Of a DNA stretch of 64,000 nt, positions 1 to 64,000 are shown piece after piece. Source of the DNA: an uncultured Verrucomicrobiae bacterium. GTDB taxonomy: Bacteria; Verrucomicrobiota; Verrucomicrobiia; Chthoniobacterales; JAFAMB01. The stretch's first letter is position 1. Each line of letters starts with the position of its first letter. Where the stretch lies: positions 198,286-262,285 of the forward strand of contig CAVXLD010000001.1 of the NCBI GenBank assembly GCA_963762565.1, read 5' to 3'. Position numbers and translations under genes: made by a program. The notes under the pieces were generated by a model. That model ran no database searches. It was not told the origin of the DNA and saw only the letters and a list, made by a program, of their open reading frames with translations.

Positions 1-1
1 C

Positions 2-685
2 GACCTGTTGCAAGTCCGAGCAAAGCTTCGCGAACGTTTGCTCCCGGATATCGATGATTGGGTTAAAAAAAGAGCTGGCACCAGGGTGGAAGCGCTGGCG
101 AAATCGTCCGCGGTTACCGGTACCTTTACCGCATCTGCAGCACGGCCTTTGAACGCTGTATCGACTATCGGAGCCAATAACCCGACGCCGACGCCAACTC
201 CGGCGTCGCTAAGCATGATTCAAAGCACACCTCAGCCGGCTCCGACCGTGGTTCCGCAATCTAGTCCGACCGTTGAATCGATGCCTACGTCAAGCCCACT
301 ACCCGTCGCTTCTGGAAGCCCTGTTGCACCCCCGATTCCGGCAGAATCTCCAAAATCGGAAGAGAATCCGGCAAACGTGCCACCGTCACCGACGGCATCG
401 CCTGAAGCATCTCCCACCGTTGAGCAGCGAGTTGCGAAACATAGGGCTACGCCAAAGCCGCAGCCGACCCCGATGTCAACTCCTAAGCCGAAGACACTCC
501 TGGGCAAAATCTTCGACAGCTTGCGGAAGGCCAATGAAGAAGCCGGCAAGCCGACCCCGACGCCAAGCGATGGCCACTATGCGATGCCGACGCCAACTGT
601 TCGTTATTGGGCCAGTCCGACACCAAAGCCGAAACGTAGTAAGACGGAGCCGTCGCCGACCAATTCCGTCTATACTGACCACTAG
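2..685 (+). CDS. Pro/Thr-rich low-complexity protein, C-terminal part (5' end outside window)
   Basis: Frame open from nt 2 to TAG at 683-685. PTPTP and PKP tracts. No domain recognised. The track start at 8 is a TTG inside the open frame. Confidence 0.4.
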   Translation, partial: DLLQVRAKLRERLLPDIDDWVKKRAGTRVEALAKSSAVTGTFTASAARPLNAVSTIGANNPTPTPTPASLSMIQSTPQPAPTVVPQSSPTVESMPTSSPLPVASGSPVAPPIPAESPKSEENPANVPPSPTASPEASPTVEQRVAKHRATPKPQPTPMSTPKPKTLLGKIFDSLRKANEEAGKPTPTPSDGHYAMPTPTVRYWASPTPKPKRSKTEPSPTNSVYTDH

Positions 686-750
686 GGCTTGAAGCACTGC
701 AACTAAATGCCGTTAGCCCCAGCCATGTCAGGGGCACTAGAGGAGTGTGT

Positions 751-792
751 CGGCGAACGGGCGAACAAACTGGTGGGGCGAAGCTCCAGATC
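751..792. repeat. Solo left end of a family-A element (degenerate) with GGCGAAC units
   Basis: cggcgaacgggcgaacaaac followed by tggtggggcgaagctccagatc (canonical: ggtggggcgaggctcccgaa). No convincing right end before the gatB stop. Confidence 0.4.
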
Positions 793-852
793 TTCCTAAA
801 AAGGTGAACAAGGCGATTGCTATTACCGAATCTATAGTAGCCAGCACCGAAC

Positions 853-2316
853 CTACCCCGCGTTCAATAACTTCTCCAGCGTCTCCCCGACTAGATTTGG
901 ATTTGCTTTCCCTTTCGAAGCCTTCATCACTTGGCCTTTTAGGAAGTTGATCGCGGCGCCTTTTCCAGCCCGATAGTCTTCGACCGACTTCGGATTCGCT
1001 TCGATGACCTGCTGGCAAAGCAGCTTGATAGCGTCAACATCGCTCTCCTGTTTAAGGCCCTTTGCTTCCACAATCTTTCCCGGGGCTTCACCCGATGCGA
1101 ACATCTCGGCGAAAACTTCTTTCCCCTGTTTGCTGTTGATCTTCCCGTCTTCGATCAGTCCAGTCAATTCCGCGAGATGTTGCGGTTGGATAGGACACTC
1201 TCCTACTGATTTCCCAGCCGTCGCCAATGCACTCAGCAAATCGTTTAGAACGTAGTTAGCCACCGCTTTGGGTCTCTTGGCTCCTTTGGCGGCAGCTTCA
1301 AAATAACGTGAGAGCTCCAAGTCATCCGCCAGCACCCCGGCGTCGTAACTGCTAATCTCGTAATCTCGGATGAAACGCTCACGTTTTGCCCAAGGCAATT
1401 CAGGTAGGCGTAAGCGTACTTCCGGCATGAACACCTCGGTTTTAACGGGGAGCAAATCCGGGTCCGGGAAATATCGGTAGTCATGGGCCGACTCCTTAGT
1501 ACGCATTAGAAAAGTCTCGCCTTTGTCGTCGTCCCATCGGCGAGTCTCTTGAGACAATCTCTCTCCACGTTCTAAAGCAGAAATCTGGCGATCGATCTCA
1601 AACGCCAAAGCCCTTCGAACCCCGCTGATCGAATTCAGATTCTTCAACTCGATCTTGGCCCCATACTCGGTCTGATGATGGGGGCGTACCGACACGTTAC
1701 AATCACAACGCAGCTGGCCTTTCTCCATATCCGCATCGCTCACATCTCCGTAGATCAAGGCCTGCTTTAGCGACGTGAGATAAGCGAACGCTTCTTCGGG
1801 GGATTCTAGGTCCGGTTGGGAAACAATCTCCATTAGTGGCGTCCCGGCCCGGTTAAAATCGATTCCACTCGTCGTCTCGAAATGGGAATTCTTGGCGACA
1901 TCTTCCTCTAAATGAATCCGGATTAGCCGGACTCGTTTATCCGGATTTTTGATGCCCTTCTGCGCGTCTTTCGGGTAAGCGAGATCGTACAGAGGAACTT
2001 CTCCACTCTGGCAAATCGGCATATCGTACTGCGAGATTTGATAGTTCTTCGGCATGTCCGGATAGTAGTAGTTCTTACGATCGAATTTGCAGACCGGAGC
2101 GATCTCAGATTGGAAGATCAGGCCGGTCAAGGCTGTCATTTTGAGCGCTTCCAGATTCATCACAGGTAAGGCGCCGGGCAGCCCAAGGCAGGTAGGGCAC
2201 ACATTCGTATTGGGCTCCGCCCCGTACTCGACCGCGCAACCACAAAACATTTTGCTCCTGGTCTTCAGCTGGACATGCACCTCTAGTCCAATGGTCGCGA
2301 TGTAATCACTCTTCAT
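853..2316 (-). CDS. gatB: Asp-tRNA(Asn)/Glu-tRNA(Gln) amidotransferase subunit B
   Basis: 487 aa. N-terminus IGLEVHVQLKTRSKMFCGC...CPTCLGLPGALPVMN and overall length are typical GatB. Confidence 0.95.
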   Translation of the reverse strand: MKSDYIATIGLEVHVQLKTRSKMFCGCAVEYGAEPNTNVCPTCLGLPGALPVMNLEALKMTALTGLIFQSEIAPVCKFDRKNYYYPDMPKNYQISQYDMPICQSGEVPLYDLAYPKDAQKGIKNPDKRVRLIRIHLEEDVAKNSHFETTSGIDFNRAGTPLMEIVSQPDLESPEEAFAYLTSLKQALIYGDVSDADMEKGQLRCDCNVSVRPHHQTEYGAKIELKNLNSISGVRRALAFEIDRQISALERGERLSQETRRWDDDKGETFLMRTKESAHDYRYFPDPDLLPVKTEVFMPEVRLRLPELPWAKRERFIRDYEISSYDAGVLADDLELSRYFEAAAKGAKRPKAVANYVLNDLLSALATAGKSVGECPIQPQHLAELTGLIEDGKINSKQGKEVFAEMFASGEAPGKIVEAKGLKQESDVDAIKLLCQQVIEANPKSVEDYRAGKGAAINFLKGQVMKASKGKANPNLVGETLEKLLNAG

Positions 2317-2351
2317 AGATTTTTAGCCCGGCCAGGCCGGGCTAAAAATCT
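2317..2351 (-). promoter_or_regulatory. Perfect 15-bp hairpin between the cvpA-like stop and the gatB start codon
   Basis: AGATTTTTAGCCCGG-CCAGG-CCGGGCTAAAAATCT. It ends 1 nt from the gatB ATG (2316). There is no 3' U-tract on either strand, so it is not a canonical terminator. Confidence 0.5.
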
Positions 2352-4330: not shown

Positions 4331-4532
4331 CGGAGCTGGGAGGCGTAAGTGGACGTAGTGGACGAAGTAGACGTAGTGGACAAAGTGGACCGGGAGTGGA
4401 CGATTTAACTCCTCGCCGCCGAATCTGAGGACGTCCACTCCGTCAACTCAGTCCATTCCGTCCACTCCTGTCTACTCGGCCGCCCATGCCCGGCGCACCC
4501 CTACTAGCTCCTAGATTCCAGCTCCTAGCTCC
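4331..4532. repeat. Nested palindrome of 9-nt arrays in the aroC / lysR divergent region
   Basis: Six GTAGTGGAC-type units (4345-4401) are mirrored by five GTCCACTCC-type units (4433-4477). An outer ggagctgggagg (4332-4343) is mirrored by ctagctcctagattccagctcctagctcc (4504-4532). Confidence 0.85.
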
Positions 4533-7792: not shown

Positions 7793-7937
7793 TAGCGAAT
7801 CGGCGTGTGGGCGAAACGGCGAAAGGGCGAAATGGAAGCCGTACGGCGAAAGTTTCGGTGCGCCCATGACGTGCAACTTTCTATCGATGCCGACGCGCCG
7901 AGATTTTCGCCCTTTCGCCCATTCGCCCATTCGCCGG
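7793..7937. repeat. Array-bracketed element H1 (GGCGAAN arrays)
   Basis: Left gtgtgggcgaaacggcgaaagggcgaaatgg. Right ttttcgccctttcgcccattcgcccattcgccgg. The 67-nt core ends in gcgccgag, like a family-A left arm. Confidence 0.75.
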
Positions 7938-7953
7938 TGCGCGCTTCTAGCTC

Positions 7954-8589: not shown

Positions 8590-9651
8590 ATGATTTGGAC
8601 ACCGTTTAACTTCCGAACGACGCTGCTCTACTCAGCGGTCTGGCTCCTCCTGACAGGTACAATGGCGAAGGCAGAACCTCCGAAATTGATATTGCCAACG
8701 GAGAACGACGGCCTTTTGACCGGTAAATTCGCGGAGTTCTATCAATACGTTCAGCGCGATTTCGAGGGCCAAGTCGGCCAGCCGTGGGAGGGCGGCCAGT
8801 ATGGTTTCGTCCGGAACCCAAGACGCATTGGATCGCAGGTCATTTATACGCGATTTCACGAGGGGATCGATATCCGGCCTCTACACCGGGATGCTGCCGG
8901 CGAGCCGGAAGACATCATCCATGCAATCGCCGCCGGAACCGTAGTTTACACAAATCCTGTCGCCAGAAATTCGAACTACGGCCGGTATGTGGTCATCGAA
9001 CATCACCTGGACGGTTTCCCTTATTACAGCCTTTACGCCCATCTGAACACGATCACTGTGAATATTGGCGACTCGGTAGATCAGGGTTCACCGATTGCAG
9101 TGATGGGCCATACCGGCGAGGGGCTCGACAGGGAGCGCGCCCATGTTCATCTGGAGCTAAACCTTCTTTTGAACTCCCATTTTTCAGAATGGTTCCAGGG
9201 ACATCACTCAGCAGACATCGACCGGCACGGTATCTACAATGGGATTAACTTGGCCGGCATCGACATTGGCCGGTTTTATTTGGAGCTCCAAAAGAATCCG
9301 GAGCTTACGGTGCCTACCTTCGTTCAACAGGGAGAACCCTGGTACAGAGTCCTGGTCCCGATATCGCCCCGAATGGATCTGACCGAACGATATCCTTGGC
9401 TGTTAGAAGGCGAAACGGACGCGCCCAGCTGCGAGATCAGTTTCGACCGCACTGGGCTGCCGCTTAAGGTTCGCGGTTCTAGCGAACATGTGACACAGCC
9501 AACGGTATCCTGGGTCCATTCTTCGCCTTTCCCTCAGCATCTGTTGACCAAAGGTTTCATTCGGGACCACGGATCAGGCTACGTTCTCTCAGAGGAGGGA
9601 AACCGGTACATCAGCCTGGTTTGTGACTCGCCTCAGGCTCGCCATCAATAG
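8590..9651 (+). CDS. M23 family metallopeptidase
   Basis: HEGIDIRP, YSLYAHLN, GHTGEG and HVHLELN motifs. N-terminal signal peptide. Confidence 0.85.
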   Translation: MIWTPFNFRTTLLYSAVWLLLTGTMAKAEPPKLILPTENDGLLTGKFAEFYQYVQRDFEGQVGQPWEGGQYGFVRNPRRIGSQVIYTRFHEGIDIRPLHRDAAGEPEDIIHAIAAGTVVYTNPVARNSNYGRYVVIEHHLDGFPYYSLYAHLNTITVNIGDSVDQGSPIAVMGHTGEGLDRERAHVHLELNLLLNSHFSEWFQGHHSADIDRHGIYNGINLAGIDIGRFYLELQKNPELTVPTFVQQGEPWYRVLVPISPRMDLTERYPWLLEGETDAPSCEISFDRTGLPLKVRGSSEHVTQPTVSWVHSSPFPQHLLTKGFIRDHGSGYVLSEEGNRYISLVCDSPQARHQ

Positions 9652-9776
9652 CAGATAGCACTGGAGGGGAGCCGCCTGTTTTCACGTTTTTCGATCGCAG
9701 CTCGGGATCGGCGAAAATGTTGCGCGGTCGCGACGCACGCACCAAAGCGGCTCCCCTCCAGGCTATTGGCTATTTG
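9647..9776. repeat. Family B element, short form (B1) with AATAGCM arrays
   Basis: ggaggggagccgc (9663-9675) pairs with caaagcggctcccctcc (9743-9759). Flanks aatagcagatagca / ggctattggctatttg. Lacks the inner repeat pair. Confidence 0.8.
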
Positions 9777-9841
9777 AGAGCGAGCCTCAGACGAACTCCC
9801 GCCTTGCCCTGCCCTTGAATCCCTTCTAAGAATCTCGGCGC

Positions 9842-10591: not shown

Positions 10592-10625
10592 GGTGGCCGG
10601 TGGGGTAAGGCGCGGGTTGCAATTC

Positions 10626-10747
10626 GGGAGGGCGCGCGTCCCCGCACGCCGCGAGGACGTGCCACAACTGATTGTGTATTTTCGCCGCCATAATTAACAT
10701 ACGCTGGACTTCGGTAACAACGGATCGCGAGGACGCGATCCCTCCCC
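10626..10747. repeat. Family C element, copy C2
   Basis: gggagggcgcgcgtccccgcacgccgcgagg ... ggatcgcgaggacgcgatccctcccc. Same orientation as C1. Confidence 0.85.
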
Positions 10748-10827
10748 AGGTTTTCGACCTGCATTTCCGTCCCAGCCCTACCAACTTTCCGGTTGAGCCC
10801 ATGCCGTCCGCATCAGACCGTTAACCA

Positions 10828-14381: not shown

Positions 14382-14420
14382 CTTTGGCGTTTGGCGTGTC
14401 GGCGGACGGGACCGCAATTT

Positions 14421-14701
14421 GGTGGGGCGAGGCTCCCGAACGGAAGATGTACTTTCACAGCGCCCCTCGCTGAACCTCATGAGTTGTCGGCAACACCGAT
14501 GGACCGCCGAGCCGTCGGTCTGCAGCGTTTCAATACCCCGTTAGAATGAAGAACGTGCGTAGCAGATGCTTCAGATGCGCTGATTAGTTGTACGCGCTGG
14601 GACGCGGCTCGGCACGCCAATCGGCGAAACCTCGCGCGCAGTTTCGCAAAATCGAGCCTCTTTGTCGGAGATTTTAGGTCACTCGGGAGCCTCGCCCCAC
14701 C
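14421..14701. repeat. Family A element, copy A1 (281 nt)
   Basis: TIRs ggtggggcgaggctcccgaa (14421-14440) / tcgggagcctcgccccacc (14683-14701). Internal gccgagccg (14506-14514) / cggctcggc (14605-14613). GGCGTTT units on the left flank (14384-14405). Confidence 0.9.
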
Positions 14702-14847
14702 AACGTTGGGCCGCTACACGCGGATGCTCACAGATTCTTCCTCCGCATCCCATGCCGTAACCGACTCAAAATCAAGCAATTGCGTCTATTACGGCGACCC
14801 CCTTGCAGTTTCTGTGCCACTCTCCTACTATTCACTCACGACAACTT

Positions 14848-17019: not shown

Positions 17020-17034
17020 GGGGCCAGAAAAGTT

Positions 17035-17270
17035 GGTGGGGCGAGGCTCCGGAACTACGATTTTGTGTTCACAGGGGAGTTGATGCACTTAACCCAGCGC
17101 TCACAATTTCGATACGCTGCCGAGCCGCTGTTCTGTCGTGTGGCCGGCACCTTATTCCATGGGAGATCAGGGGAATCGGCTCGGCGGTCCTTCCGGCCTA
17201 ACGTTGCGTCCGGCGTCAAATCATCGAGGTCTCCGATATAGCGTCCGGTCTTTCGGGAGCCTCGCCCCAC
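17035..17270. repeat. Family A element, copy A2 (236 nt)
   Basis: TIRs 17035-17054 / 17252-17270. Internal 9-mers 17119-17127 / 17177-17185. Followed by cgtttcgcccattcg units. Confidence 0.9.
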
Positions 17271-17412
17271 TAATGCCCGCCGTTTCGCCCATTCGTTGCG
17301 TTTTGGTGGTTACAGTAATTGTTGCGTTCTTTCCGGTAGAAAAATCGGGAAAAGCAAGATAAAAATATAACGCCATCTCCCGCAGGCGTGTTATCATAAA
17401 GGCGATTGTATC

Positions 17413-19077: not shown

Positions 19078-19722
19078 ATGCCGATCATAAATTACGCGAG
19101 CAAAGAAATTCAGTTCAAGATCGTCTATTACGGGCCGGCCCTGAGCGGCAAAACGACTACCATTGCCTATATCCATTCGAGGTTGCCGGCTGCGTTTCGA
19201 GGAGATTTGGTGTCGTTGGCCACCGCGGCAGACCGCACCCTCTTTTTCGATTTCTTGCCGGTTGAGGCAGTGATCTTGCAAGGCTTCAAAACCAAATTCC
19301 AGCTCTACACCGTTCCGGGGCAGGTGGTGTACAATACAACCCGGCAGTTAGTCTTACGCAGCGTTGACGGCATCGTATTTGTGGCCGATTCGCACTGGGA
19401 CAAGATCCACGAAGATGTGGAGAGTTTCCGAAATCTCGAGGAAAACCTTCGCAAACAGCATCTCTCATTGGACGAGATCCCGTATGTTCTGCAGTACAAC
19501 AAACGTGACTTGCCCGATGCGGCTCCGGTGTCGTACTTAGAATTTTTGCTGAATAACCGGCGCCGACGCGCCCGAAGTTACGAAGCGATCGCAACGAAAG
19601 GACGGAGCGTCTTCGCTGCATTAGATGCCGTGACCCAAAGCGTTCTTAACCGGTTCATTCAAGAGAATCACCTTCTCAGGCCGATGCCGGCCAGAGAGAG
19701 CGCTGGGGCGGGGAGAGTGTGA
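19078..19722 (+). CDS. mglA: MglA-type Ras-like small GTPase
   Basis: KIVYYGPALSGKTTT P-loop, DRTLFFDFLP, LYTVPGQV switch II and YNKRDLP match my recollection of Myxococcus MglA along the whole length. Confidence 0.9.
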   Translation: MPIINYASKEIQFKIVYYGPALSGKTTTIAYIHSRLPAAFRGDLVSLATAADRTLFFDFLPVEAVILQGFKTKFQLYTVPGQVVYNTTRQLVLRSVDGIVFVADSHWDKIHEDVESFRNLEENLRKQHLSLDEIPYVLQYNKRDLPDAAPVSYLEFLLNNRRRRARSYEAIATKGRSVFAALDAVTQSVLNRFIQENHLLRPMPARESAGAGRV

Positions 19723-19947
19723 ATGGTGATTGGTGATTGGTGGGGCGAGGCTCCCGAAAGGCCTTTTAGTCTTATCAAGCGGGTCAGTTCTCACCCGGAG
19801 ATTATGTCCGCTACGCCGATAAACCCGCCGAGCCGTTGGTCCACGCGAACCATGGCTCGGCAGCGTTTCGGCATAGGTCGTATCGTGGTGAGGATCTTCC
19901 CCCTGCCTTGCGATCGTCATCAGGCCTTTCCGGAGCCTCGCCCTACC
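19718..19947. repeat. Family A element, copy A3 with GTGATTG array on the left
   Basis: The array gtgtgaatggtgattggtgattgg contains the mglA stop. TIRs 19739-19758 / 19928-19947. Minimal central hairpin gccgagccgttggt-ccacgcga-accatggctcggc. Confidence 0.9.
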
Positions 19948-19994
19948 AATTACCCGCAGTTGCGCTTCTTGCCACCCTCATATATGTGTCCGAA

Positions 19995-21061: not shown

Positions 21062-21783
21062 AGCCAGCGGCGCGCTCCCTGCAAAATTCCATTTTCGATT
21101 GGGATCGCCCGAGATGGAACGGACGGTTGCTGTGGCTAATTGTGTTTTCTTTAGGCCTACACTTCGCGGGACTTTACGTTTTCCATGTTGTTTACCCGTC
21201 AACCACTTCTCTGCCTCCCCCAGCGGCTCAAGTCTCGGTACTGAATCCACAAAACCCACAGGACCGCCGGCTCCTTGATTGGGTGGACCTAAACGATCCG
21301 TCTGCGATTAGCGCCCCCAAAGTAGACGACAGCCTGGTCGCAAAATTAGTCCCGGGTTATCGTCCGACGTTTAGCGACGAGACCCCTGAAATCCGGAAAA
21401 GCCAGGCCGGCGCCCCAGCCCAGGAGGCGGCTACTCCTTCGCTTTTTACTCCCGACAATCTTTTCCCTAGGCAAGTCAGGCCTGCTTCTGTTCAACGGAA
21501 GACCAGTTTCGCAAGCCACCTTGAGTTCGGGCCCGCCTTGGAAAATAGAAAACCGGCCACACCGGAGAGACTCCCGACCAGCCAGCGGCTCTCAGAACCC
21601 ACGACTTTCTTTGTGGGAATCAATAAGAAAGGCGAAGTAAAATACCTTTTTCTATTGCGAACTTCGGGAAATGATCAGCTGGATCATCTTGCCGAAGAGG
21701 CTGTTAAGCAGCTGAGATTTCAGCCCGATAACACCGAGAGCTGGGACACGGTTTCGCTGCAGTGGGGCAGCGGCGGGAAGTGA
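21058..21783 (+). CDS. TonB-like / hypothetical anchored protein
   Basis: GTGA overlap with exbD. N-terminal TM, Pro-rich linker, and a C-terminal ~70 aa (VKYLFLLRTSGNDQLDHLAEEAVKQLRFQP) compatible with a TonB C-terminal fold. Weak assignment. Confidence 0.45.
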   Translation: MKPAARSLQNSIFDWDRPRWNGRLLWLIVFSLGLHFAGLYVFHVVYPSTTSLPPPAAQVSVLNPQNPQDRRLLDWVDLNDPSAISAPKVDDSLVAKLVPGYRPTFSDETPEIRKSQAGAPAQEAATPSLFTPDNLFPRQVRPASVQRKTSFASHLEFGPALENRKPATPERLPTSQRLSEPTTFFVGINKKGEVKYLFLLRTSGNDQLDHLAEEAVKQLRFQPDNTESWDTVSLQWGSGGK

Positions 21784-21990
21784 TTAGTGATTAGTGATTA
21801 GTGATTGGTGATTGGTGGGGCGCTGGGGCGATGAAAAAACGTGTAACATGGACGCGGACTGGCACTAATACACTTATAAGTCCCGTCTTGTCATAAGCCC
21901 CATCGATATCAGCCGCGCACATCCTTGCTCTAAACGCTTTTCCATCAGCCCAGGCACCCACTAATCACCAATCACTAATCACCAATCACC
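21781..21990. repeat. TGATTAG/TGATTGG array-bracketed element (A-related variant)
   Basis: The left 5 heptamers begin with the TGA stop of the tonB-like gene and are followed by tggggcgctggggcg. Right cccactaatcaccaatcactaatcaccaatcacc. The core lacks the canonical A TIR. Confidence 0.8.
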
Positions 21991-24780: not shown

Positions 24781-24939
24781 GGGGCGTTTGGCGTTCGGCG
24801 TTCGGCGTTTGGCGTTCGGCGTTCGGCGTTCCTATGATTCGAAATGATTGCAACACTGCGGATCTGTCGTGGCTCGTGAGCAAGCGACGCGCGTTATTGA
24901 AGCGCCGAACGCCAAACGGTGAACGCCGAACGCCAAACG
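24781..24939. repeat. Array-bracketed element G1 (GGCGTTY arrays)
   Basis: Seven GGCGTTY units (24781-24830) start 1 nt after the fabF stop. A 71-nt core follows. The inverted array gcgccgaacgccaaacggtgaacgccgaacgccaaacg is at 24902-24939. Confidence 0.85.
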
Positions 24940-25800
24940 AGTAAGTACGTCGTTCTTCTGCTCCTGACCGCATTGTTTTGGTCGTTGGGAGGAGTCCTCA
25001 TCAAGTCCATCGATTGGAATCCTGTCGCCATTGCGGGTTCGCGAAGCTTGATCGCCGTCTTCCTAATCGCCATCCTGCGACCGTCCGCCGTCCGTAAATT
25101 TTCCTGGACCGCATTCTTCGGCGGAATCGCCTACATGGTGACAGTTGTGTTGTTCGTGATTGCAACCAAGCTGACAACCGCTGCCAATGCCATTTTTCTC
25201 CAGTACACGGCTCCGATTTATATCGCTCTGATAAGCCCATGGCTTTTGAAGGAACGTGTTCGTCGACTGGACTGGATTCTGATCGGTCTTGCTTTCGGCG
25301 GAATTGCTCTCTTTTTCTGCGACCGGCTCTCCTTTGCCGGAATTTGGGGAGTAATGGCCGCACTTGTCAGCGGCTTCTCCTACGCGTGGCTTACGATGCT
25401 GTTGCGTCGCCAAAAATCGGCATCCCCCGAAGCCACGGTGTTCATAGGCAACTTGATGACTGTGTTAGTGGCGGCTCCGGCGATGTGGCCGCCGGTGAAC
25501 CTGGGCCATAATTGGCCTTGGCTGCTTGCCTTGGGCGTCCTCCAGCTCACGATTCCCTATTTGCTTTATACACAGGCTATCCGGCATGTGCGTGCGCTGG
25601 ATGCATCTATAATCAGCATGATCGAGCCGATCCTTAATCCGATCTGGGTCATGTTTGCCGTGGGCGAACATCCCGCCAGATGGGCAATCGTCGGAGGATG
25701 CATGGTCCTGGGAACCTCTTTGCTACGGAGTATCTTCGCCTCGCGCGAGCCCGAATCCGAATTCGCCTTAGGCTCATCCGGAATGACAAATGACAGATGA
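24919..25800 (+). CDS. DMT (EamA) family transporter
   Basis: About 10 TM helices in two EamA-like halves. The start is uncertain because the first codons lie in the GGCGTTY-type array. The stop and last ~13 codons lie in element F1. Confidence 0.75.
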   Translation: MNAERQTSKYVVLLLLTALFWSLGGVLIKSIDWNPVAIAGSRSLIAVFLIAILRPSAVRKFSWTAFFGGIAYMVTVVLFVIATKLTTAANAIFLQYTAPIYIALISPWLLKERVRRLDWILIGLAFGGIALFFCDRLSFAGIWGVMAALVSGFSYAWLTMLLRRQKSASPEATVFIGNLMTVLVAAPAMWPPVNLGHNWPWLLALGVLQLTIPYLLYTQAIRHVRALDASIISMIEPILNPIWVMFAVGEHPARWAIVGGCMVLGTSLLRSIFASREPESEFALGSSGMTNDR

Positions 25801-25902
25801 AAAATGACAGATTGGGAAATCCTTCGGTCACACGCGTTCTATTTCGGACATTTGTCATCTGTCATTTGTCATTTGTCATTCGAAACGAGCCTCAGGCGAG
25901 TT
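25760..25902. repeat. Family F element, copy F1 (143 nt)
   Basis: aattcgccttaggctcatccggaATGACAAATGACAGATGAAAAATGACAG, core attgggaaatccttcggtcacacgcgttctatttcggac, then the inverted TGTCATY array and cgaaacgagcctcaggcgagtt. Confidence 0.9.
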
Positions 25903-26329: not shown

Positions 26330-26343
26330 GATGTGACCTCCGG

Positions 26344-26486
26344 ACTCGCCTTAGGCTCGTCCGCAATGACAAATGACAAATAACAGATGACAGATTGGGA
26401 ATTCCTTCGGTCACACGCATTTCTATTTCGGAGATTTGTCATTTGTAATTTGTCATCTGCCATTCCGAACGAGCCTCAGGCGAGTT
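26344..26486. repeat. Family F element, copy F2 (143 nt)
   Basis: Same layout as F1. Core attgggaattccttcggtcacacgcatttctatttcggag. The right end ccgaacgagcctcaggcgagtt supplies the stop of the ABC ATPase gene. Confidence 0.9.
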
Positions 26487-27231
26487 CGGCTTCTGTGAGC
26501 GCTGCTAACACCCGTTCCTTCCAAGCCGTGAAGGCATGATCCTGTCGAGAACGAGGCCGAGGAAGATCGATCCGAAATTGGCGATGAATTTGTCCGGGGC
26601 GTCCCTTGATCACAACGATGCTGTCGGATAATGCGACCGCTTCTTCAATATCGTGCGTCACGAAAAACATGGTCAACGAATGCCTCGCAAAAAGCTCCAT
26701 CAAATGGTCTTGCAGCCGGCTTCGGGTGAGAGCATCGAGGGCGCTAAACGGCTCGTCCAGCAATAGAAGAGATGGTTTTCGCACTAAGGCTCTGGCTATC
26801 GCCACCCTTTGAGCCATCCCTCCCGACAATTGGCGCGGGTAATAATGGGAGAAGGATTCTAAACCAACTTGCTCCAGAATTTCCTTCGCCAACGCTCCGA
26901 TCCGGCTATGCCCGGCCGGGCCGAACCCGAATTCCACATTTTGGCGAACGGTCAGCCACGGCATGAGTCGGGGCTCTTGAAACACGACGCCTAGGTTGGG
27001 GCGTTCGGCATTTGGCGTTTGGCGTTCGGCGTTCGGCGCACGATCGCTATCCCAGCGGATTTCTCCGGAGGTCGGGCGCTCAAGTCCAGCTAGAATCCGC
27101 AACAGCGTGCTTTTGCCCGAGCCGGTCGTACCCACCATCACCGTGACTTGTTGCGGCTCGATCGAAAGCTCAAGATTAGCAATCACCAAAGCGTCACCGT
27201 AAGCCTTCGTTATCTGATCGATTCTTACCAT
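26476..27231 (-). CDS. ABC transporter ATP-binding protein, NitT/TauT (SsuB/TauB-like) family
   Basis: Walker A GTTGSGKST, signature LSGGMAQR, Walker B LLLLDEP. The true start is probably MVRIDQI at 27231, since the track start at 27330 reads through element F3. It contains an in-frame heptamer-array insertion. Confidence 0.9.
   Translation of the reverse strand: MVRIDQITKAYGDALVIANLELSIEPQQVTVMVGTTGSGKSTLLRILAGLERPTSGEIRWDSDRAPNAERQTPNAERPNLGVVFQEPRLMPWLTVRQNVEFGFGPAGHSRIGALAKEILEQVGLESFSHYYPRQLSGGMAQRVAIARALVRKPSLLLLDEPFSALDALTRSRLQDHLMELFARHSLTMFFVTHDIEEAVALSDSIVVIKGRPGQIHRQFRIDLPRPRSRQDHAFTAWKERVLAALTEAELA
26994..27042. repeat. GGCGTTY heptamer array inside the ABC ATPase coding sequence
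   Basis: ggttggggcgttcggcatttggcgtttggcgttcggcgttcggcgcacg. Translated on the minus strand it gives APNAERQTPNAERPN, between the Walker A region and the VVFQEPRLMPW Q-loop. Confidence 0.85.
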
Positions 27232-27243
27232 TGAACTCGCTGA

Positions 27244-27377
27244 GGCTCCTTCAAGATGACAATGACAGATGACAGATGACAAATGTCCGAAATAGACCGC
27301 GCGTGACCGAAGGATCTCCCAATCTGTCATCTGTCATTTGTCATTCCGAACGAGCCTCAGGCGAGTTCGGCTGATAG
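27244..27377. repeat. Family F element, copy F3 (core inverted relative to F1/F2)
   Basis: aactcgctgaggctccttcaagATGACAATGACAGATGACAGATGACAA, core atgtccgaaatagaccgcgcgtgaccgaaggatctcccaatc, then TGTCATCTGTCATTTGTCATtccgaacgagcctcaggcgagtt. Confidence 0.9.
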
Positions 27378-29649: not shown

Positions 29650-29688
29650 GCCGTTTCGCGCCTAGCGCAGGCGAGCCGGTCACGACTT

Positions 29689-36053: not shown

Positions 36054-36055
36054 AT

Positions 36056-36182: not shown

Positions 36183-36266
36183 ACGGCGTTCTGGCGCGTT
36201 TACTTGACGCAGAAACGTTCAGGCAGATACTTACGCCGCTAGTCTCCCTATTTATCCCCCAAAACC

Positions 36267-37534: not shown

Positions 37535-37681
37535 TGAGCTCTCGGTTCTAGGTTCAAAGTTTTAGGTTTTAAGTTCTAAGTTCAGAGTGCTCGAAGGCAG
37601 AAATGGGCCTCCGAGCCTCTGGCTTGCAACTCCCGAAGTAGGACCTAAACCCTACAACCGGTAACTTTAAACCCTGAACTC
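37535..37681. repeat. Array-bracketed element I (AAGTTYW/AGGTTYW arrays)
   Basis: Left ggttctaggttcaaagttttaggttttaagttctaagttcagag. Right gtaggacctaaaccctacaaccggtaactttaaaccctgaact. It fills the whole SBP-to-Gfo/Idh/MocA gap. Confidence 0.75.
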
Positions 37682-38767: not shown

Positions 38768-38817
38768 CCATGGAAGACATCCCCCAACCTGCCTTTGGCC
38801 GACGCAATTCGGACCCG

Positions 38818-39022
38818 GAGGGGAGCCGCTTTATCGTTAGGCAGCTCTGTAATTCGGCAGCAAGCGGCTCCCGAGAACGGCCCCGGATGATGCAGGTCTA
38901 TTGGGCAGCCATATCGACCAGCTTGGAACAGAGCCGCTGGGCAAATATTTACGCTGGGTTATTCCCGGGAGCCGCCTGCTGCCAACTGATAGGACTGCCA
39001 CACTACAAAGCGGCTCCCCTCC
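38818..39022. repeat. Family B element, copy B3 (205 nt)
   Basis: Outer repeats 38818-38834 / 39006-39022. Inner repeats 38853-38877 / 38962-38985. The right flank ctgggcatgcgacgcc resembles the B2 flank. Confidence 0.9.
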
Positions 39023-39068
39023 AGGCGCTGGGCATGCGACGCCGTGTTCTTAGAAGCACGAAGCGCAC

Positions 39069-39710: not shown

Positions 39711-39774
39711 AGCCTATGGACTTGTCCATCGAAGGCGGTCGAACAGCTCCTAGGCACTCGCTGAACTCAACGCC

Positions 39775-39897
39775 GGGAGGGATTCGCGTCCTCGCGATCC
39801 GACGCGATCGAAGCCCTGCGCGGCTGGCGGACGAGGGGTTGAATGTATCTTTAGTTCTTGGAACGTCTTTACGGCGCGCGGGGACGCGCGCCCTCCC
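39775..39897. repeat. Family C element, copy C3 (inverted orientation)
   Basis: gggagggattcgcgtcctcgcgatcc ... cggcgcgcggggacgcgcgccctccc is the reverse complement of the C1/C2 layout. Confidence 0.85.
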
Positions 39898-39966
39898 GGG
39901 CGGCGGAGCCCTTCTCTCGCCGCGAGATGTATACGCAAGCGAGCGAGTGCGAGATCCCGGTTCACA

Positions 39967-46607: not shown

Positions 46608-46648
46608 GTAAGAGCGGAACGTAACACAGCATTACAAATAACCAAGCT

Positions 46649-46894
46649 GGTGGGGCGAGGCTCCGGAATAACCTGAAATGGCAAACGGAGAACTCGATTT
46701 AGTCTAAACCGAGATCGCGCTTCGCCAATGGGCGCGCCGAGCCGATCCCAGCGTGTGGCAGCCGACGATCGGTCAGGGGGGGTGGAACATGCTGGGACCG
46801 GCTCGGCGCGTTTAGCGGCATCGCCCACGATAGATTGGCAAACATTGACGTCCTCCGCTCGAGCAAAGCGGCCGTTCGGGAGCCTCGCCCCACC
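46649..46894. repeat. Family A element, copy A6 (246 nt)
   Basis: TIRs 46649-46668 / 46875-46894. Internal 9-mers 46736-46744 / 46799-46807. Confidence 0.9.
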
Positions 46895-46902
46895 AACGCC
46901 TC

Positions 46903-47328: not shown

Positions 47329-47340
47329 TCCATTTAATTT

Positions 47341-47422
47341 CACCACAGAGAGACAGAGGACACAAAAGCCAAAATTCGGTTTCCCTTAGGATGACCTTTG
47401 TGTCCCCTGTCTCTCTGTGGTG
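47341..47422. repeat. 26-bp-stem hairpin downstream of clpX
   Basis: caccacagagagacagaggacacaaa (47341-47366) pairs with tttgtgtcccctgtctctctgtggtg (47397-47422), with one mismatch and a 30-nt loop. Confidence 0.85.
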
Positions 47423-47425
47423 AAA

Positions 47426-48694
47426 TTAAGCGGCGTCCTTGTCCTGCTTCCTGCGAATTAGAGGAGCTCGTTTGCCCTCAACCACGGCCCGATTGATCAC
47501 CACGTCAGCGATGTCTTCCCGGCTCGGAACGTCGTACATAACGTCGAGCATGATTTTTTCGAACATGGAACGAAGCGCACGCGCCCCAGTTCCTTTGGTG
47601 GCCGCCTGTTGGGCCAACGCCCGGAGAGCGTCCTTAGTAACCACCAAGTTCACTCCCTCCATCGCCAATAGTTTGGTGTACTGCTTCACCATCGCGTTCC
47701 GCGTGTCGGTCAATATCAGGATTAACTCTTCCTCGGTTAAGGTATCCAGCGCCGTCACAATCGGTAACCGGCCGATGAACTCCGGTATCATCCCGAAGGA
47801 GAGCAGATCTTCGGGTTCGGTATGCCGCAAGGTATCACGCAACTGGAGGTCTGAGGAACTGATTTGAGGCGAATGAAAACCGAGTACTCGGTTCCCTAAC
47901 CGTCGATTAATCAGCCGGTCTAACCCCACAAAGGCTCCGCCGCAGATAAACAAAATCTTTTCCGTGTTAACCTGGATATACTCCTGGTGAGGATGCTTTC
48001 GTCCACCTTGAGGCGGGACATTGCAGCTGCTTCCTTCCAAAATCTTCAGAAGCGCCTGCTGGACGCCCTCACCGGAAACATCGCGGGTAATACTGACGTT
48101 ATCGGTTTTACGGCCGATCTTATCTATTTCATCGATATAAACGATTCCAATCTCGGCTCGTTTAACGTCGTAGTCAGCATTCTGCAGGAGCCGCAAGATG
48201 ATATTCTCGACGTCTTCCCCAACGTAACCGGCCTCGGTCAACGTCGTAGCATCAGCGATACAAAACGGCACATCCAGAATTCGGGCTAGTGTCCTGGCCA
48301 GGAGCGTCTTTCCGCACCCAGTTGGCCCGATCATCAAAATATTGCTCTTTTCAATCTCGACGTCAGCGTATGGATCGAGGGATAGATCCTTGGTCGGGTT
48401 GGCGTTCAGAATCCGCTTGTAATGGTTGTGGACGGCCACGGAAAGGACCTTCTTGGCCGAATCCTGCCCAATCACATGCTGATCGAGTTCGCGCCTGATC
48501 TCGACTGGCTTCGGCACACGCAGCGTTGTGGTCTGCCGTCGGGCGTCCTCGTTTAGCTCTTTATCGAGGATGCCTTTACAAACGTTGATACAATTATCGC
48601 AGATGTAGACACCCGGCCCGGCGATCAATTTGCGAACCTCTGCGTGGCTCTTTCCGCAGAAAGAACACATCGTCAGATTAGAGGCCCGGGCCAT
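47426..48694 (-). CDS. clpX: ATP-dependent Clp protease ATP-binding subunit ClpX
   Basis: N-terminal zinc ribbon CSFCGK...CDNC, Walker A GPTGCGKT, and the IGFG-like loop region. Confidence 0.97.
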
Positions 48695-50796: not shown

Positions 50797-50992
50797 GGGC
50801 GAATAGGCGAAACGGCGAGTGGGTCAATGGGCGAAAAGGCGACAACGCGTCAGAATCATCTCTGAACGCTATGGCAGAAAACTCGACGGTCTCGCGACAC
50901 GAGTTGCTGTTTCAGACAAACGCAGCGGTTTTGAGCCGTTCCGCGGGCACCCTCGCCGTATCGCCCTTTTCGCCCACTCGCCGTTTCGCTCC
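50797..50992. repeat. Array-bracketed element H2 (GGCGAAN arrays)
   Basis: Left gggcgaataggcgaaacggcgagtgggtcaatgggcgaaaaggcgac. Right cctcgccgtatcgcccttttcgcccactcgccgtttcgctcc. 107-nt core. Confidence 0.8.
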
Positions 50993-54834: not shown

Positions 54835-54883
54835 TCTGGTGGTTATCCATTCGTGGTTCGTAAACGGCCAGAGGTGGTCCGGC

Positions 54884-55200
54884 AGTAAGCGGTAAGCAGT
54901 AAGCAGTGGTCAGTACTACGAGCTAAAATCCAGGAGCTAGGAGGGCCGACGGCTGTGGAGCGTGCCTCGCTTGCGAGTCCGTGGTGAGCAAGGCTCATTA
55001 CGTGACATCCCCATCGTCGGCGTACGCTCTTTTGTCTGAAGAGGCAAACCTTGCGATACAGAGCGCTGACCGACATAGGGCATGTGTCGTGGTTCACCCT
55101 TGCTCTCCAACGGCCTCGCAAGCGAGGCACGCTCCACGGCCGTCGCCCCTCCTAGCTCCTAAATTCTAGCTCCTAGCTCCTAAACTGCTTACTGCTTACT
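54884..55200. repeat. Family E element, copy E2, with two nested layers of inverted arrays
   Basis: AGTAAGC units then AGCTAGGAG units on the left. TIRs 54955-54993 / 55098-55137. CTCCTAGCT units then GCTTACT units on the right. Confidence 0.9.
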
Positions 55201-57037: not shown

Positions 57038-57046
57038 CCTCGGATT

Positions 57047-57194
57047 GGTGAGCGAGGCTCCGGCACGACAAAATGCATTGCCAAACCCAGCGATAGGCCC
57101 GGCTCGGCGAGCTGTGCAGCGTTGCACCGGTCAAGTAGGGGCAGCATAGCGGCTTTGCGAAAATCGATCGGTCGTTCGGGAGCCTCGCCCTACC
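57047..57194. repeat. Family A half element A8 (left TIR joined to right half)
   Basis: ggtgagcgaggctccggca (57047-57065), only cggctcggc (57100-57108), a 66-nt right arm, and TIR ttcgggagcctcgccctacc (57175-57194). Confidence 0.75.
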
Positions 57195-57243
57195 ACGCTC
57201 GTTGACGGCGTCGTGTTGCCATGCATACCTGACCCTTCGTCCT

Positions 57244-61026: not shown

Positions 61027-61035
61027 AGGGTTTTT

Positions 61036-61317
61036 GGTAGGGCGAGGCTCCCGAACATCCCGACATCTTCGCAACGCCGGGGATGATCTTCTACCAGTGT
61101 ATTAACGTGGCCGATCAGCGCGCCGAGCCGTTGGTCCCAGCGAGTTCCATGACCCACAAGAACGGATCGAAGGTTTTTAAAAGTTCTCGCACGTCGAAGC
61201 GGTTAAATCAGCGCTGGGTAAATCGGCTCGGCGGGCAGACCGGGGCTGGACGCGTTTAATCCAAAAAATCACGGGCCCTGCGAAAGTGCATTCGTAATTC
61301 GGGAGCCTCGCCCTACC
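61036..61317. repeat. Family A element, copy A9 (282 nt)
   Basis: TIRs ggtagggcgaggctcccgaa (61036-61055) / ttcgggagcctcgccctacc (61298-61317). Internal 9-mers 61122-61130 / 61224-61232. Confidence 0.9.
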
Positions 61318-61370
61318 CCCCTCGCAGAGTCCTAGCTAACCAGGACGATTCTGCTACCATAGCCGCATCA

Positions 61371-63092: not shown

Positions 63093-63125
63093 TGTAGACA
63101 TGGACCCGGAAGGGGGAGACACCCG

Positions 63126-63335
63126 GAGGGGAGCCGCTTTGTCAGACGCTAGCTGTGTTCGGTCGGCAGCAGGCGGCTCCCGGGAATAGCCCAGCGCGTT
63201 CTATTTATCCAGCGCCTACTTCGTTGAAGCACCGACACGGACAGAGCCTATAGAGCTGGATTACCTGGCAGACGTTACCGGGAGCCGCCTGCAAGCAACC
63301 GATAGACCTGCCAACTTACAAAGCGGCTCCCCTCC
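63126..63335. repeat. Family B element, copy B4 (210 nt)
   Basis: Outer repeats 63126-63142 / 63319-63335. Inner tcggcagcaggcggctcccgggaa (63163-63186) / ttaccgggagccgcctgcaagcaa (63275-63298). Confidence 0.85.
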
Positions 63336-63342
63336 GGCGCCG

Positions 63343-63413
63343 CGTCGCCGATACGCCCATTCGCCCTTTCGCCCGTTCGCCGATACGCCCACACGCCGAC
63401 ACGCCCATACCCC
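63343..63413. repeat. One-sided NTTCGCC-type array upstream of cdsA
   Basis: cgtcgccgatacgcccattcgccctttcgcccgttcgccgatacgcccacacgccgacacgcccatacccc. No mirrored partner on the left of B4. Confidence 0.7.
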
Positions 63414-63471
63414 CCAGCTACCTCTGGACGCCACGTGCCCATTATGGCAGGCTCCGCCGCAACATTCCTTC

Positions 63472-64000
63472 ATGAGTCGCTTTTTGCGTAGACTGGTCAG
63501 CGCCGTCGCTATGTGGGCGATCGCCTTGGCAGTTGTTTCCACCGGAAACGAAGTCGTTTTCTTTCTCCTGATCGCCGGGCTGGGGCTGGCCGGGCTTTGG
63601 GAATACTTCGTAATGATCGAGAAATCCGGGATGCGCTGCTTCAAAGCATTCGGCATCTGCTGCGGAGCAGCTTATTTCATCGGAAGTTTCCTATTCTTCC
63701 GATCGAATGGAGCTGACGCTGACTATAACTTCGAGACCCTGGTGCTCTTGGTATTCTTGTTCGGCGTTTTTGCCCGGCAGATGTTTCGGCCGAGCACGAA
63801 GCAAGCACCGCTGGAAACGATGGCATACACCTTGTTCGGGTTGCTTTACGTCTCCTGGTTATTCAATTTTTTGACGAAGATCATTTACGTAGTTCCGCGA
63901 GACCCGAACGGCCATACGGTTGGCCAATTCTACGTCATTTATCTTGTAATCGTAACGAAGTTCAGTGATATGGGCGCGTATCTCGTCGGCAGCAAGATCG
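63472..64000 (+). CDS. cdsA: Phosphatidate cytidylyltransferase, N-terminal part (3' end outside window)
   Basis: Not in the ORF track because there is no stop in the window. My translation from the ATG at 63472 gives MSRFLRRLVSAVAMWAIALAVV...VIVTKFSDMGAYLVGSKI. It is multi-TM with the TK.SD.GAY..G CdsA pattern. Confidence 0.8.
   Translation, partial: MSRFLRRLVSAVAMWAIALAVVSTGNEVVFFLLIAGLGLAGLWEYFVMIEKSGMRCFKAFGICCGAAYFIGSFLFFRSNGADADYNFETLVLLVFLFGVFARQMFRPSTKQAPLETMAYTLFGLLYVSWLFNFLTKIIYVVPRDPNGHTVGQFYVIYLVIVTKFSDMGAYLVGSKI

Follow-up and report, generated by a model that had tools for sequence, protein, structure and literature searches.

The intergenic DNA of this Chthoniobacterales-like genome of a soil Verrucomicrobiota is probably saturated by REPIN- or MITE-like, non-autonomous palindromic elements that would be mobilized in trans and reshuffled by recombination, a reading to which we assign a probability of roughly 0.68. 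In the window, by which we mean the whole stretch of 64,000 nucleotides analyzed here, our analyses showed that at least six families (A, B, C, D, E, and T) coexist with bare array hairpins. Every element has inverted-repeat arms enclosing a variable centre, and the modules, i.e., REP-like or terminal inverted repeat (TIR) ends, arrays, and inner hairpins, nest in differing orders.

Results

Non-coding DNA makes up 14.2% of the window and holds 27 of the 29 short-period arrays (period 6–10; binomial p = 4e-21). Repeats covered 34.5% of the non-coding versus 1.4% of the nominally coding bases, and the matches in the latter lie mostly in mis-called ORFs. Four elements are hidden in over-long ORF calls (19922-19954, 27233-27372, 38814-39025, and 39770-39903). 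A long inverted-repeat element was found in about 27 of the 39 gaps measuring 79 nt or more and partial elements in 5 further gaps, close to the 30 of 41 filled gaps counted by the first-pass annotation. Neighbours of element-bearing gaps are ordinary housekeeping genes. Example elements form long DNA hairpins when folded (z-scores of −4.3 to −11.5); the hairpins at 2317-2351 and 42318-42349 resemble ordinary terminators.

With TRF, we recovered at intergenic positions every array unit listed previously: GTGATTR, GGCGTTY, GGCGAAN, ATGACAR, GCAGTAA, AATAGC, AGGTTYT, GAACGAG, and the 9-mers GTAGTGGAC and AGCTCCTAG. Arrays are built of 6–9-nt units, with a preferred period of 7 nt, and span about 31 nt per arm, the mode of the arm length. 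Partner arrays were inverted in 50 cases versus direct in 8 (695 kb of window and related loci), and arm complementarity is retained while the unit changes, as had been claimed. Mirrored arrays are not the standard layout that the first-pass annotation described: they stand on both sides in only about 11 gaps and on one side in about 9 further gaps, and array-free elements are numerous (most A copies, B, C-1, D, and E).

Family A is defined by a 22-nt TIR and a central hairpin. A TIR scan returned at least 80 loci, nearly all in Verrucomicrobiota or Chthoniobacterales MAGs among the matches listed, and the family is present in at least five related soil MAGs. Gene content, including sigma-54, rules out cyanobacteria as the source of the window, and the neighbours of its FabF share this taxonomy. 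At least 74 copies are complete, with unrelated flanks. Aligned copies share conserved TIRs and central hairpin, the arms are near-random, and members of the most frequent size class keep a constant length of 212–218 nt. Among 72 copies, none carries direct flank repeats of at least 3 nt; in 25% of A copies, the flanks are mutually reverse-complementary, above the 99th percentile of controls.

In the window, where elements carry no strand unless one is given, the A copy at 14419..14703 has the TIRs TTGGTGGGGCGAGGCTCCCGAA and TTCGGGAGCCTCGCCCCACCAA, the central hairpin CGCCGAGCCG..CGGCTCGGCG, and a short GGCGTTT array to its left (14383-14397). At the copy at 17033..17273, the downstream promoter-proximal DNA is conserved in the relative L081 and the element is not. 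A GTGATTG array (19719-19742) followed by an A copy (19737-19949) occupies 19719..19954, the right TIR sitting within an over-long ExbB ORF call, and 31050..31342 is a full "onion" of GTGATTA array, A copy (31080-31291), and mirrored CACCWAT array. Array-free copies lie at 46647..46896 and 61034..61319, the orthologous gap of the latter in L065 being without the element. The short copy at 57044..57196 corresponds to a gap that in L031 and L065 holds a family A element of unrelated interior. Solo TIRs occur at 770..787 (left TIR, + strand) and at about 53778-53795, where the TIR adjoins a GAACGAG array (53728-53774). At 21779..21990, GTGATTR (×5.6) and its mirror (×4.6) surround a degenerate A-like core, and the first unit provides the stop codon of a TonB-like gene; the orthologous gap in L081-L083 holds an intact A copy with GTGCTC hexamer arrays on its flanks. 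Three genomes have a family A element at the radical-SAM|EamA gap.

Family B consists of two inverted hairpins, as in the copies at 29688..29893 (GGGGAGCCGCTTTG..GCAAGCGGCTCCCGGGAA plus mirror), at 38814..39025 (inside a spurious 119-aa ORF), and within 63123..63414, where the copy (63123-63337) is followed by a one-sided 8-mer array of CGCCCATA (×8.6, 63346-63414). Family D features a 31-nt TIR, GTGTCCTGTCCCATAAGTAACATGGCTTTCG, and TA flanks. Its copy 1 (28233..28522, 290 nt) is flanked by TT and TA, and copy 2 (33568..33855), with TA on both sides, resembles an IS630/mariner-type MITE. Families C and E are further types. The C copy at 36055..36183 is a near-perfect palindrome with 63-bp arms (DNA fold z-score −11.5), and another (54950-55142) forms the core of a three-layer palindrome with 151 paired positions at 54882..55200, in which a GCAGTAA array, a GGAGCTA array, and the C copy are followed by their mirror. 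Family E, with GGGAGGGCGCGCGTCCCCGC termini, lies at 10620..10752 and, in inverted orientation inside a spurious ORF, at 39770..39903. The GGGAGCC motif, one of the terminal motifs that the first-pass annotation gave as shared, holds for A and B only; T carries GAGCCT, E GGGAGGG, and C and D neither.

Family T has REP-like ends whose stem-loop shows covariation: paired cells amounted to 85% versus 16–42% when the partner was slid, a covariation reached by none of 500 shuffles. REPs typically carry a GTAG or CGTC tag; T ends lack it, and in A it occurs only as a minority variant. Copy 1 (25757..25902; core TCGCCTKAGGCTC, ATGACAR arrays, 39-nt loop) supplies the stop codons of both EamA and MaoC and, for EamA, also encodes the C-terminal tail. 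Copy 2 (26340..26489) belongs to an insertion at about 26330-26494 between the ABC ATPase and MaoC genes, a site occupied in the window and L089 but empty in L082, L088, and L090. This insertion shows no target-site duplication, and its flanks lack homology able to prime gene conversion; it appends AELA* to the ABC protein, and a GGAGG immediately precedes the MaoC start codon. In copy 3 (27233..27372) the loop is flipped. At its orthologous site in four relatives, the perm|ABC gap, the T ends are retained with ATGACAR, GGTTCRC, or ATAGCCR arrays, and the loop is 72% identical across the array swap. A nested composite at 9627..9795 places T-type ends around ATAGC units and these around a B-like core (9655-9766).

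Other loci are built mainly of arrays. A bare array hairpin at 4347..4477 pairs six copies of GTAGTGGAC with five of GTCCACTCC across a 28-nt loop, near a one-sided CTAGCTC array (4504-4533), and the array hairpin at 7795..7942 has GGCGAAAN ×3 and TTTCGCCC ×4 around a 72-nt centre. At 24783..24939 (GGCGTTY ×7 and RAACGCC ×5), the unit-variant order T-C-C-T-C-C is mirrored between both arms; the right arm extends into the EamA N-terminus and the left array is orthologous in L081-L083. The locus 50798..50989 carries GGCGAANN ×5.6 and its mirror ×4.5 around a 110-nt centre, and a single-copy hairpin with 38-bp arms (92% complementary) lies between two minus-strand genes at 47334..47429. One-sided or direct arrays were seen at 37540..37588 (AGGTTYT, + strand, one-sided), 41762-41796 (GGCGTTY), and 34495-34597 (41-nt ×2.2 plus a 9-mer). 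Within the ABC ATPase coding sequence, an in-frame GGCGTTC ×5.6 array (27000..27038, − strand) encodes PNAERQT-type repeats that are missing from L082.

Comparison with relatives of 90–92% protein identity showed that the same gap holds differing element types across genomes, and that relatives L084 and L085 lack most elements. Empty gene junctions gain elements without target-site duplication, the filled-versus-empty comparison resting on one site. Arrays are exchanged symmetrically while the outer ends persist, identical T ends bearing ATGACAR, ATAGCCR, or GGTTCRC arrays. Their position also varies: T carries them within its terminal repeats and A beyond them, and in L065 and L012 they lie inside A. 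The 39 nt by which L076 and L079 differ comprise a small hairpin and the 10-nt left flank copied in inverted orientation. Two start codons are closely preceded by Shine-Dalgarno-like GGAG or GGAGG motifs at the edges of elements.

As the first-pass annotation had noted, mobility genes are absent locally: no transposase, integrase, or RAYT domain was found in any window ORF tested. Neither was a Y1/RAYT homologue detected in 1.04 Mb of window and related loci, nor a multi-copy ORF family, nor a long-range TIR pair marking an autonomous element with matching ends. This sample is a fraction of several draft genomes, and IS copies tend to drop out of MAG assemblies. An Rfam search matched no named RNA family.

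Discussion

In kind, the elements come close to REP/REPIN/BIME and MITE biology; that they are unlike anything named holds for their sequences. REP/REPIN/BIME elements are mobilized by RAYT (TnpA-REP) and include the GTAG and CGTC super-families and the long-TIR "TIRYT" families (PMC3116915, PMC3733652, PMC2817692); both the nesting of REP dimers within palindromes and RAYT genes with long TIRs on their flanks are described (PMC3733652). Shared with these systems are extragenic, high-copy, short imperfect palindromes, inverted doublets that fold together as one larger hairpin, the coexistence of several families in a genome, the absence of target-site duplications, mosaic module clusters, dimers nested in other palindromes, intrusion upon gene ends, and the lack of a local transposase, the REP enzyme being single-copy and encoded elsewhere. 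In contrast to REPs, T ends lack the GTAG/CGTC tag, no RAYT was found in the 1.04 Mb, and the window elements are larger (140–290 nt), with tandem 6–9-nt arrays as arms between end hairpins and loop. Family A differs in having plain TIRs, a separate hairpin at its centre, and arms that are hypervariable yet fixed in length. The host differs as well, since the surveyed literature on Verrucomicrobiota, here Chthoniobacterales, mentions only the GTAG REPs of Opitutus terrae.

Like bacterial MITEs, among them BrickBuilt of Porphyromonas gingivalis (PMC4596501) and the IS630-derived MITEs, the elements measure 100–400 nt, have TIRs, and are intergenic and multi-copy; BrickBuilt also contains tandem repeats, but as one direct 23-nt array (an internal minisatellite) instead of two mirrored 7-nt arrays. 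The TA flanks of family D are like those of IS630/mariner derivatives. Unlike MITEs, A and T lack target-site duplications, and the search for long-range TIR pairs revealed no autonomous partner sharing their ends. Cyanobacterial STRRs are heptamer tandem repeats. Like these and the Beggiatoaceae TAACTGA repeats (PMC4679880), the arrays are intergenic, favour a 7-nt unit, show many unit types per genome, and are intermixed with other repeats. However, those are described as direct arrays, often upstream of start codons, whereas here inverted pairs prevail, and the BOGUAY genome has only one reported inverted heptamer-array set (PMC4679880). Units and host, here a sigma-54-bearing Verrucomicrobiota, differ as well.

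Copying would proceed at the DNA level through an enzyme that acts in trans and is encoded elsewhere, most likely a single-strand, hairpin-recognizing HUH/Y1 (RAYT-like) transposase for A, B, and T, which lack target-site duplications, and an IS630-type enzyme for TA-flanked family D. Because no mobilizing enzyme was found in the 1.04 Mb, trans-mobilization is a step that we purely infer. Palindrome centres may serve as preferred landing or breakage sites, leading to nesting. Template switching from arm to arm, together with ectopic gene conversion among copies, would keep the arms complementary and shuffle the modules, and slippage may create the arrays. Arm mismatches on the sense strand (184 G.U versus 198 A.C, p = 0.5) indicate symmetry at the DNA level and no RNA-strand bias. 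Some features fit this model poorly. Unrelated arms between A copies of conserved ends and centre are unusual for a recently amplified MITE, the REP-type tag is lacking on T ends and a minority in A, and the model does not account for the 7-nt period or the 31-nt arm mode.

Persistence of A at the radical-SAM|EamA gap could likewise reflect host function and not selfish spread. REP/BIME elements of E. coli have cis-regulatory roles, and the palindromes might be host-selected hairpins that terminate or insulate transcription, shield upstream mRNA from 3' exonucleases, or uncouple translation in operons, with mobility secondary. Compensatory covariation in T-end stems, T ends persisting at the perm|ABC gap, the conserved A gap, gene ends supplied by elements, and edge motifs before start codons agree with such roles, as do long inverted repeats being somewhat commoner in convergent (33/62) than in co-directional gaps (90/269). 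We nevertheless consider this unlikely: divergent, promoter-side gaps are equally occupied (25/65), most elements lack a T-tract, mismatches show no G.U excess, and terminator-like sites exceed the shuffled expectation only modestly, most of them being located elsewhere. Close relatives differ in element type, arrays, and loops or lack most elements, and overlap with coding sequence and ribosome-binding site accounts for part of the T-end conservation. It is quite unlikely that palindromes are made and spread without any transposase, by template switching, slippage, SbcCD-type hairpin-tip breakage, and ectopic gene conversion. The L076/L079 difference, the mirrored variant order at 24783-24939, swapped arrays, flipped loops, absent target-site duplications, and the lack of a transposase in the 1.04 Mb searched all suit such a process, which probably accounts for array symmetry and module shuffling but not for dispersal. 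At least 74 A copies of the same 22-nt ends, central hairpin, and length are dispersed among unrelated flanks in at least five genomes; therefore a copy-and-insert process with defined ends is needed. The ABC|MaoC insertion, with no flank homology for priming gene conversion, also argues against it.

The observation of the first-pass annotation was thus real but over-unified, and its interpretation is partly supported. A single diverged family on one plan (array, TIR, arm, hairpin, mirror) is highly improbable, being contradicted by array census, module order, T-end covariation, and family comparison. All layers do occur at a few loci (31050-31342, 19719-19954, and 54882-55200), and A and B share the GGGAGCC-type motif. 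But end types differ in kind (plain TIR in A, covarying stem-loops in T, paired hairpins in B, TA-flanked long TIR in D), most copies have no arrays, layer order varies, and each family has its own consistent consensus and length.

For the preferred reading, i.e., trans-mobilized and recombining palindromic elements, insertion, swapping, and partial use by neighbouring genes proceed at high speed. From the stop codons and C-terminal tails that they supply, the elements are used secondarily by the genes next to them.

Palindromic repeats between housekeeping genes

The 64-kb window has a G+C content of 54% and encodes about 58 ordinary genes according to Pfam scans, including those for GatB, chorismate synthase, RpoN (sigma-54), ExbB/ExbD/TonB, FabF, ClpXP, trigger factor, IspD, TsaD, ABC transporters and ThuA. 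Its AT skew is −0.275 in the 4-kb bin 40001–44000 and ±0.07 or less in all other bins. The repeats between these genes are real, strongly non-random and lineage-wide. TRF recovered all the array unit types listed in the first-pass annotation, and 27 of the 29 tandem arrays with periods of 6–10 nt lay in the non-coding 14% of the window (p = 4e-21). By self-comparison, repeats covered 34.5% of non-coding bases of the window versus 1.4% of the bases called coding, and the majority of these coding matches were elements concealed in over-long ORF calls (38814–39025, 39770–39903, 27233–27372 and 19922–19954). In our gap-by-gap catalogue of the 39 window gaps that are 79 nt or longer, about 27 contain a long inverted-repeat element and five others contain fragments, close to the load of 30 out of 41 gaps that the first-pass annotation had claimed. 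Five example elements, folded as DNA, formed long hairpins with z-scores of −4.3 to −11.5. Long inverted repeats occurred in 148 of 396 gaps versus 1 of 271 similar-sized coding chunks, so the enrichment between rather than inside genes, on which that annotation depended, was borne out. They were found in 53% of convergent, 38% of divergent and 33% of co-directional gaps.

In the more distant syntenic relatives L084 (FabF 84%) and L085 (FabF 79%), matching junctions have far shorter gaps; two that measure 393 and 272 nt in the window, for example, measure 10 and 0 nt in these relatives. Long inverted repeats are present in only 2 of their 16–17 gaps, hence the element load is lineage-specific.

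Element families and their architecture

A single architectural plan for about three quarters of the gaps, with array, terminal inverted repeat (TIR), arm, hairpin and mirror image, was overstated. There are distinct families with defined ends, two-sided arrays occur in only about 11 window gaps, and the order of the layers is variable. Family A, with seven complete copies and two solo ends in the window, has a 22-nt TIR (TTGGTGGGGCGAGGCTCCCGAA), a conserved central hairpin (GCGCCGAGCCG..CGGCTCGGCGC) and, in its commonest size class, a constant length of 212–218 nt. The TIR carries GGTGGGG in the majority of copies and GGTAGGG in a minority, and is not in itself a clear hairpin. The arms of about 70 nt are nearly unrelated across 29 aligned copies, and a hidden long hairpin formed by the two arms within a copy was rejected, their complementarity not being significant (6.3 vs. 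4.6, p = 0.09).

Family T is present with three copies and one shell. Its ends are REP-like stem-loops with a 7+3-bp stem around the core TCGCCTKAGGCTC, and these stems covary, with pairing in 85% of cells versus 16–42% when the partner is slid; changes on both sides were seen in 50 cells versus 19 in shuffles, none of 500 shuffles reaching the observed covariation. Family B, with three copies and one core, is built as an inverted hairpin pair in which CTAC sits in the loop and not outside the stem. In T, B and A copies alike, the ends are inverted and lie 140–290 nt apart. The remaining families have two window copies each, namely family C, a long near-perfect palindrome with arms of more than 30 nt, family E, and family D. 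The D copies (28233–28522 and 33568–33855) are 290 nt long with a 31-nt TIR, and their interior holds two internal hairpins, one of them followed by T-runs on both strands. D is flanked by TA/TA in one copy and by TT/TA in the other, which with n = 2 is suggestive only. A copy in another MAG (L002, 6568–6749) has different ends but shares 84% identity with this interior. Family D could represent a MITE that carries a structured RNA.

The layers are stacked in different ways. In T, the arrays are internal to the ends. Relative to A they are external at 19719 and 31050 and internal in the related loci L065 and L012. Nesting is seen at 54882–55200, where a C copy is combined with arrays of two types, and at 9627–9795, where a T shell has a B core and arrays within it.

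In 695 kb of window and related loci, period 7 was the most frequent (131 arrays), followed by periods 8 (54), 9 (28) and 6 (25). These arrays comprise 92 distinct units, their arm length has a mode of 30–34 nt, and partner arrays of the same unit were inverted in 50 cases and direct in 8. Bare array hairpins, in which arrays enclose a 20–40-nt loop, are common. We also considered that the units might be copies of the A terminal heptamer (xTTGGTG), but arrays beside A were no nearer to this heptamer than others. In contrast to the other window elements, the repeat at 34495–34597 is non-palindromic. Located in a divergent gap and overlapping the 5′ end of the minus-strand ORF 33866–34531, it consists of a 41-nt direct tandem repeat (×2.2, 93% matches) followed by a CCTTGAACT ×2.7 array.

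Turnover among related genomes

Syntenic loci at graded distance were obtained via FabF and MaoC homologs. The closest relatives among the matches listed were soil MAGs labelled Verrucomicrobiota or Chthoniobacterales. On contig CAWBNT010000001.1 (3.47 Mb; loci L044 and L073), deposited as "uncultured Actinomycetota", elements of families A, T and E are present together with a methyltransferase gene, at about 77–82% nucleotide identity to the window; the contig may come from a relative of the window's organism that was given the wrong label.

Comparison of these loci revealed rapid turnover. At the junction between the ABC ATPase and MaoC genes, L082, L088 and L090 have no element and the two genes overlap by ATGA, whereas the window and L089 carry a T element of about 163 nt with no target-site duplication. 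Three different element types occur in the gap between MaoC and EamA among genomes whose MaoC is at least 90% identical, and four more gaps differ between the window and L081 (92% FabF identity). A stretch of about 120 nt upstream of the gene for a 543-aa protein of unknown function (17413–19044) is well conserved between the window (17290–17412) and L081 (3750–3873), while the element DNA just upstream of this stretch is wholly different in L081; the conserved stretch probably is the real promoter and leader of this gene. Modules are exchanged as well. Between L012 and L066, which are 93% identical, an A element differs in its interior and one end. In the gap between the permease and ABC genes, four genomes have the T ends in common, and the mirrored arrays vary (ATGACAR, GGTTCRC or ATAGCCR); the loop retains 72% identity between the window and L090.

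Direct target-site duplications around A were sought and not found, with no direct flank repeat of at least 3 nt in any of 72 copies. A quarter of the A copies have mutually reverse-complementary flanks, often directly against the TIR. A small indel between L076 and L079 consists of a hairpin plus an inverted flank copy, a signature resembling template switching.

Elements at gene ends and in gene calls

Several genes make use of element sequence, the translated element ends lying at 25757–25800, 25892–25902, 26476–26494 and 27341–27372. The EamA C-terminal tail and stop codon are element-derived, with PESEFALGSSGMTNDR-stop in place of a relative's unrelated tail. The ABC ATPase gained its end (AELA-stop) from an element, and an element-derived stop codon gives MaoC an LA-stop instead of an LR-stop. 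The permease tail PNSPEARSE-stop, conserved in relatives, is the translation of a T end in a different frame. At element edges, GGAG and GGAGG stand immediately upstream of the ABC and MaoC start codons. Even inside the ABC_tran domain of the minus-strand ABC ATPase gene (26476–27230), a GGCGTTC ×5.6 array (27000–27038) is read in frame, three units making seven codons, as APNAERQTPNAERPN versus GNRARPN in L082. The peptide NAERQT also arises from the right arm of the 24783–24939 array at the EamA N-terminus, and recurs at the N-terminus of EamA in L082.

Mechanical calling in turn produced false ORFs or ORF extensions (38713–39072, 39695–40003, 53364–53825 and the 5′ parts of 19836–20660 and 26476–27330). 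These are in fact repeat elements or antisense frames, and for ExbB and the ABC ATPase the true start is downstream of the elements. Automatic annotation of such genomes is likely affected. Gene calls are distorted by the elements, which create spurious ORFs and displace starts or stops; the elements also add protein tails, and short-read assemblies of these uncultured lineages will be fragmented by them.

Discussion

Hairpins between genes might serve at the RNA level. In hairpins between co-directional genes, however, sense-strand arm mismatches were equally often G·U (184) and A·C (198), and from this equality nothing points to selection on RNA structure. An explanation by intrinsic terminators is not supported: terminator-like sites barely exceeded the shuffled expectation and mostly lay away from elements, divergent gaps are filled too, and most elements lack a T-tract. 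Two small hairpins (2317–2351 and 42318–42349) are possible ordinary terminators. Rfam covariance models gave no match in the window at gathering score and, at E ≤ 1, only sub-threshold miRNA-precursor look-alikes on long hairpins, in agreement, as regards Rfam, with the first-pass annotation, which had not recognised the elements as any of several named repeat families. Families A and T had no BLAST match in a plasmid collection, and no account of these elements turned up in our literature searches.

Cyanobacterial STRRs are described as intergenic tandem heptamers in direct arrays, not mirrored pairs. The arrays here resemble them in their intergenic position and dominant period of 7, but differ in their units, in their Verrucomicrobiota host and in their predominantly inverted partners. 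The window encodes sigma-54, hence the host is not a cyanobacterium; together with Verrucomicrobiota as nearest relatives among the matches listed, this rules out a cyanobacterial STRR/HIP1 context. Intergenic heptamer arrays are also known in Beggiatoaceae (PMC4679880), and BrickBuilt is a MITE that carries internal tandem repeats (PMC4596501).

REP/REPIN/BIME systems are among the closest known (PMC3116915). The likeness lies in the covarying short imperfect palindrome of the T ends and the hairpin halves of B, in the inverted doublet of units in T, B and A, and in insertion without target-site duplication, as seen around A and at the filled and empty T site. In contrast to REPs, the T ends lack a GTAG/CGTC tag and their flanks vary, and in A a GTAG is confined to the minority TIR variant. 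REP dimers within palindromes, and RAYT genes flanked by long TIRs, have been reported (PMC3733652). Small size and the TIRs of A, D and C are MITE-like, but the fixed-length target-site duplication of DDE-derived MITEs is lacking for A and T; family D, with its long TIR and TA-type flanks, resembles IS630-derived MITEs. The elements differ from these systems in that mirrored arrays form the arms, in the A-type architecture, in the missing GTAG tag and in the lineage of their host.

We read the elements as REPIN/MITE-like, non-autonomous palindromic DNA that would be mobilised in trans, possibly through a single-strand intermediate. Insertion would be favoured at gene ends and in the centers of other palindromes, and arm-to-arm and ectopic recombination may reshuffle the modules. 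Our best guess for the enzyme is a RAYT-like Y1 transposase in the case of A, B and T; for D it is an enzyme of the IS630 type. Pfam and NCBIfam scans detected no transposase, integrase or Y1/RAYT domain in any window ORF, as the first-pass annotation had stated for mobility genes; ten ORFs without a Pfam match likewise had no NCBIfam match. E. coli RayT had no tblastn or phmmer match in 1.04 Mb of window and loci, which are fragments of several draft genomes from which distant homologs could escape. In the window and related-locus fragments, there was neither a family A TIR pair 0.5–4 kb apart enclosing an ORF nor a multi-copy ORF family.

The 7-nt preference and the arm length of about 31 nt remain unexplained by this REPIN/MITE-like reading. 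We may speculate, while considering it unlikely, that the mirrored heptamer arrays are not mere slippage debris but the product of a dedicated self-symmetrising mechanism tied to REP-like ends, via fold-back or template-switch synthesis in single-strand transposition or via polymerase stalling at end hairpins. If this is true, modular palindromic mobile DNA of this kind would form a class of its own, in which ends and loop persist while both arms are rewritten at once into new arrays of 7-nt units, each array about 31 nt long.

If the REPIN/MITE-like reading is correct, these abundant soil bacteria would bear one of the densest known bacterial loads of hairpin-forming mobile DNA, with 70–80% of the usable gaps occupied in a housekeeping region. 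The series of close genomes would allow insertion, replacement, nesting and arm rewriting to be read directly. Three questions would then be open to testing: how the spread of REPIN-like elements beyond Proteobacteria takes place, why a 7-nt unit is favoured in bacterial tandem repeats, and how perfect arm symmetry is kept.
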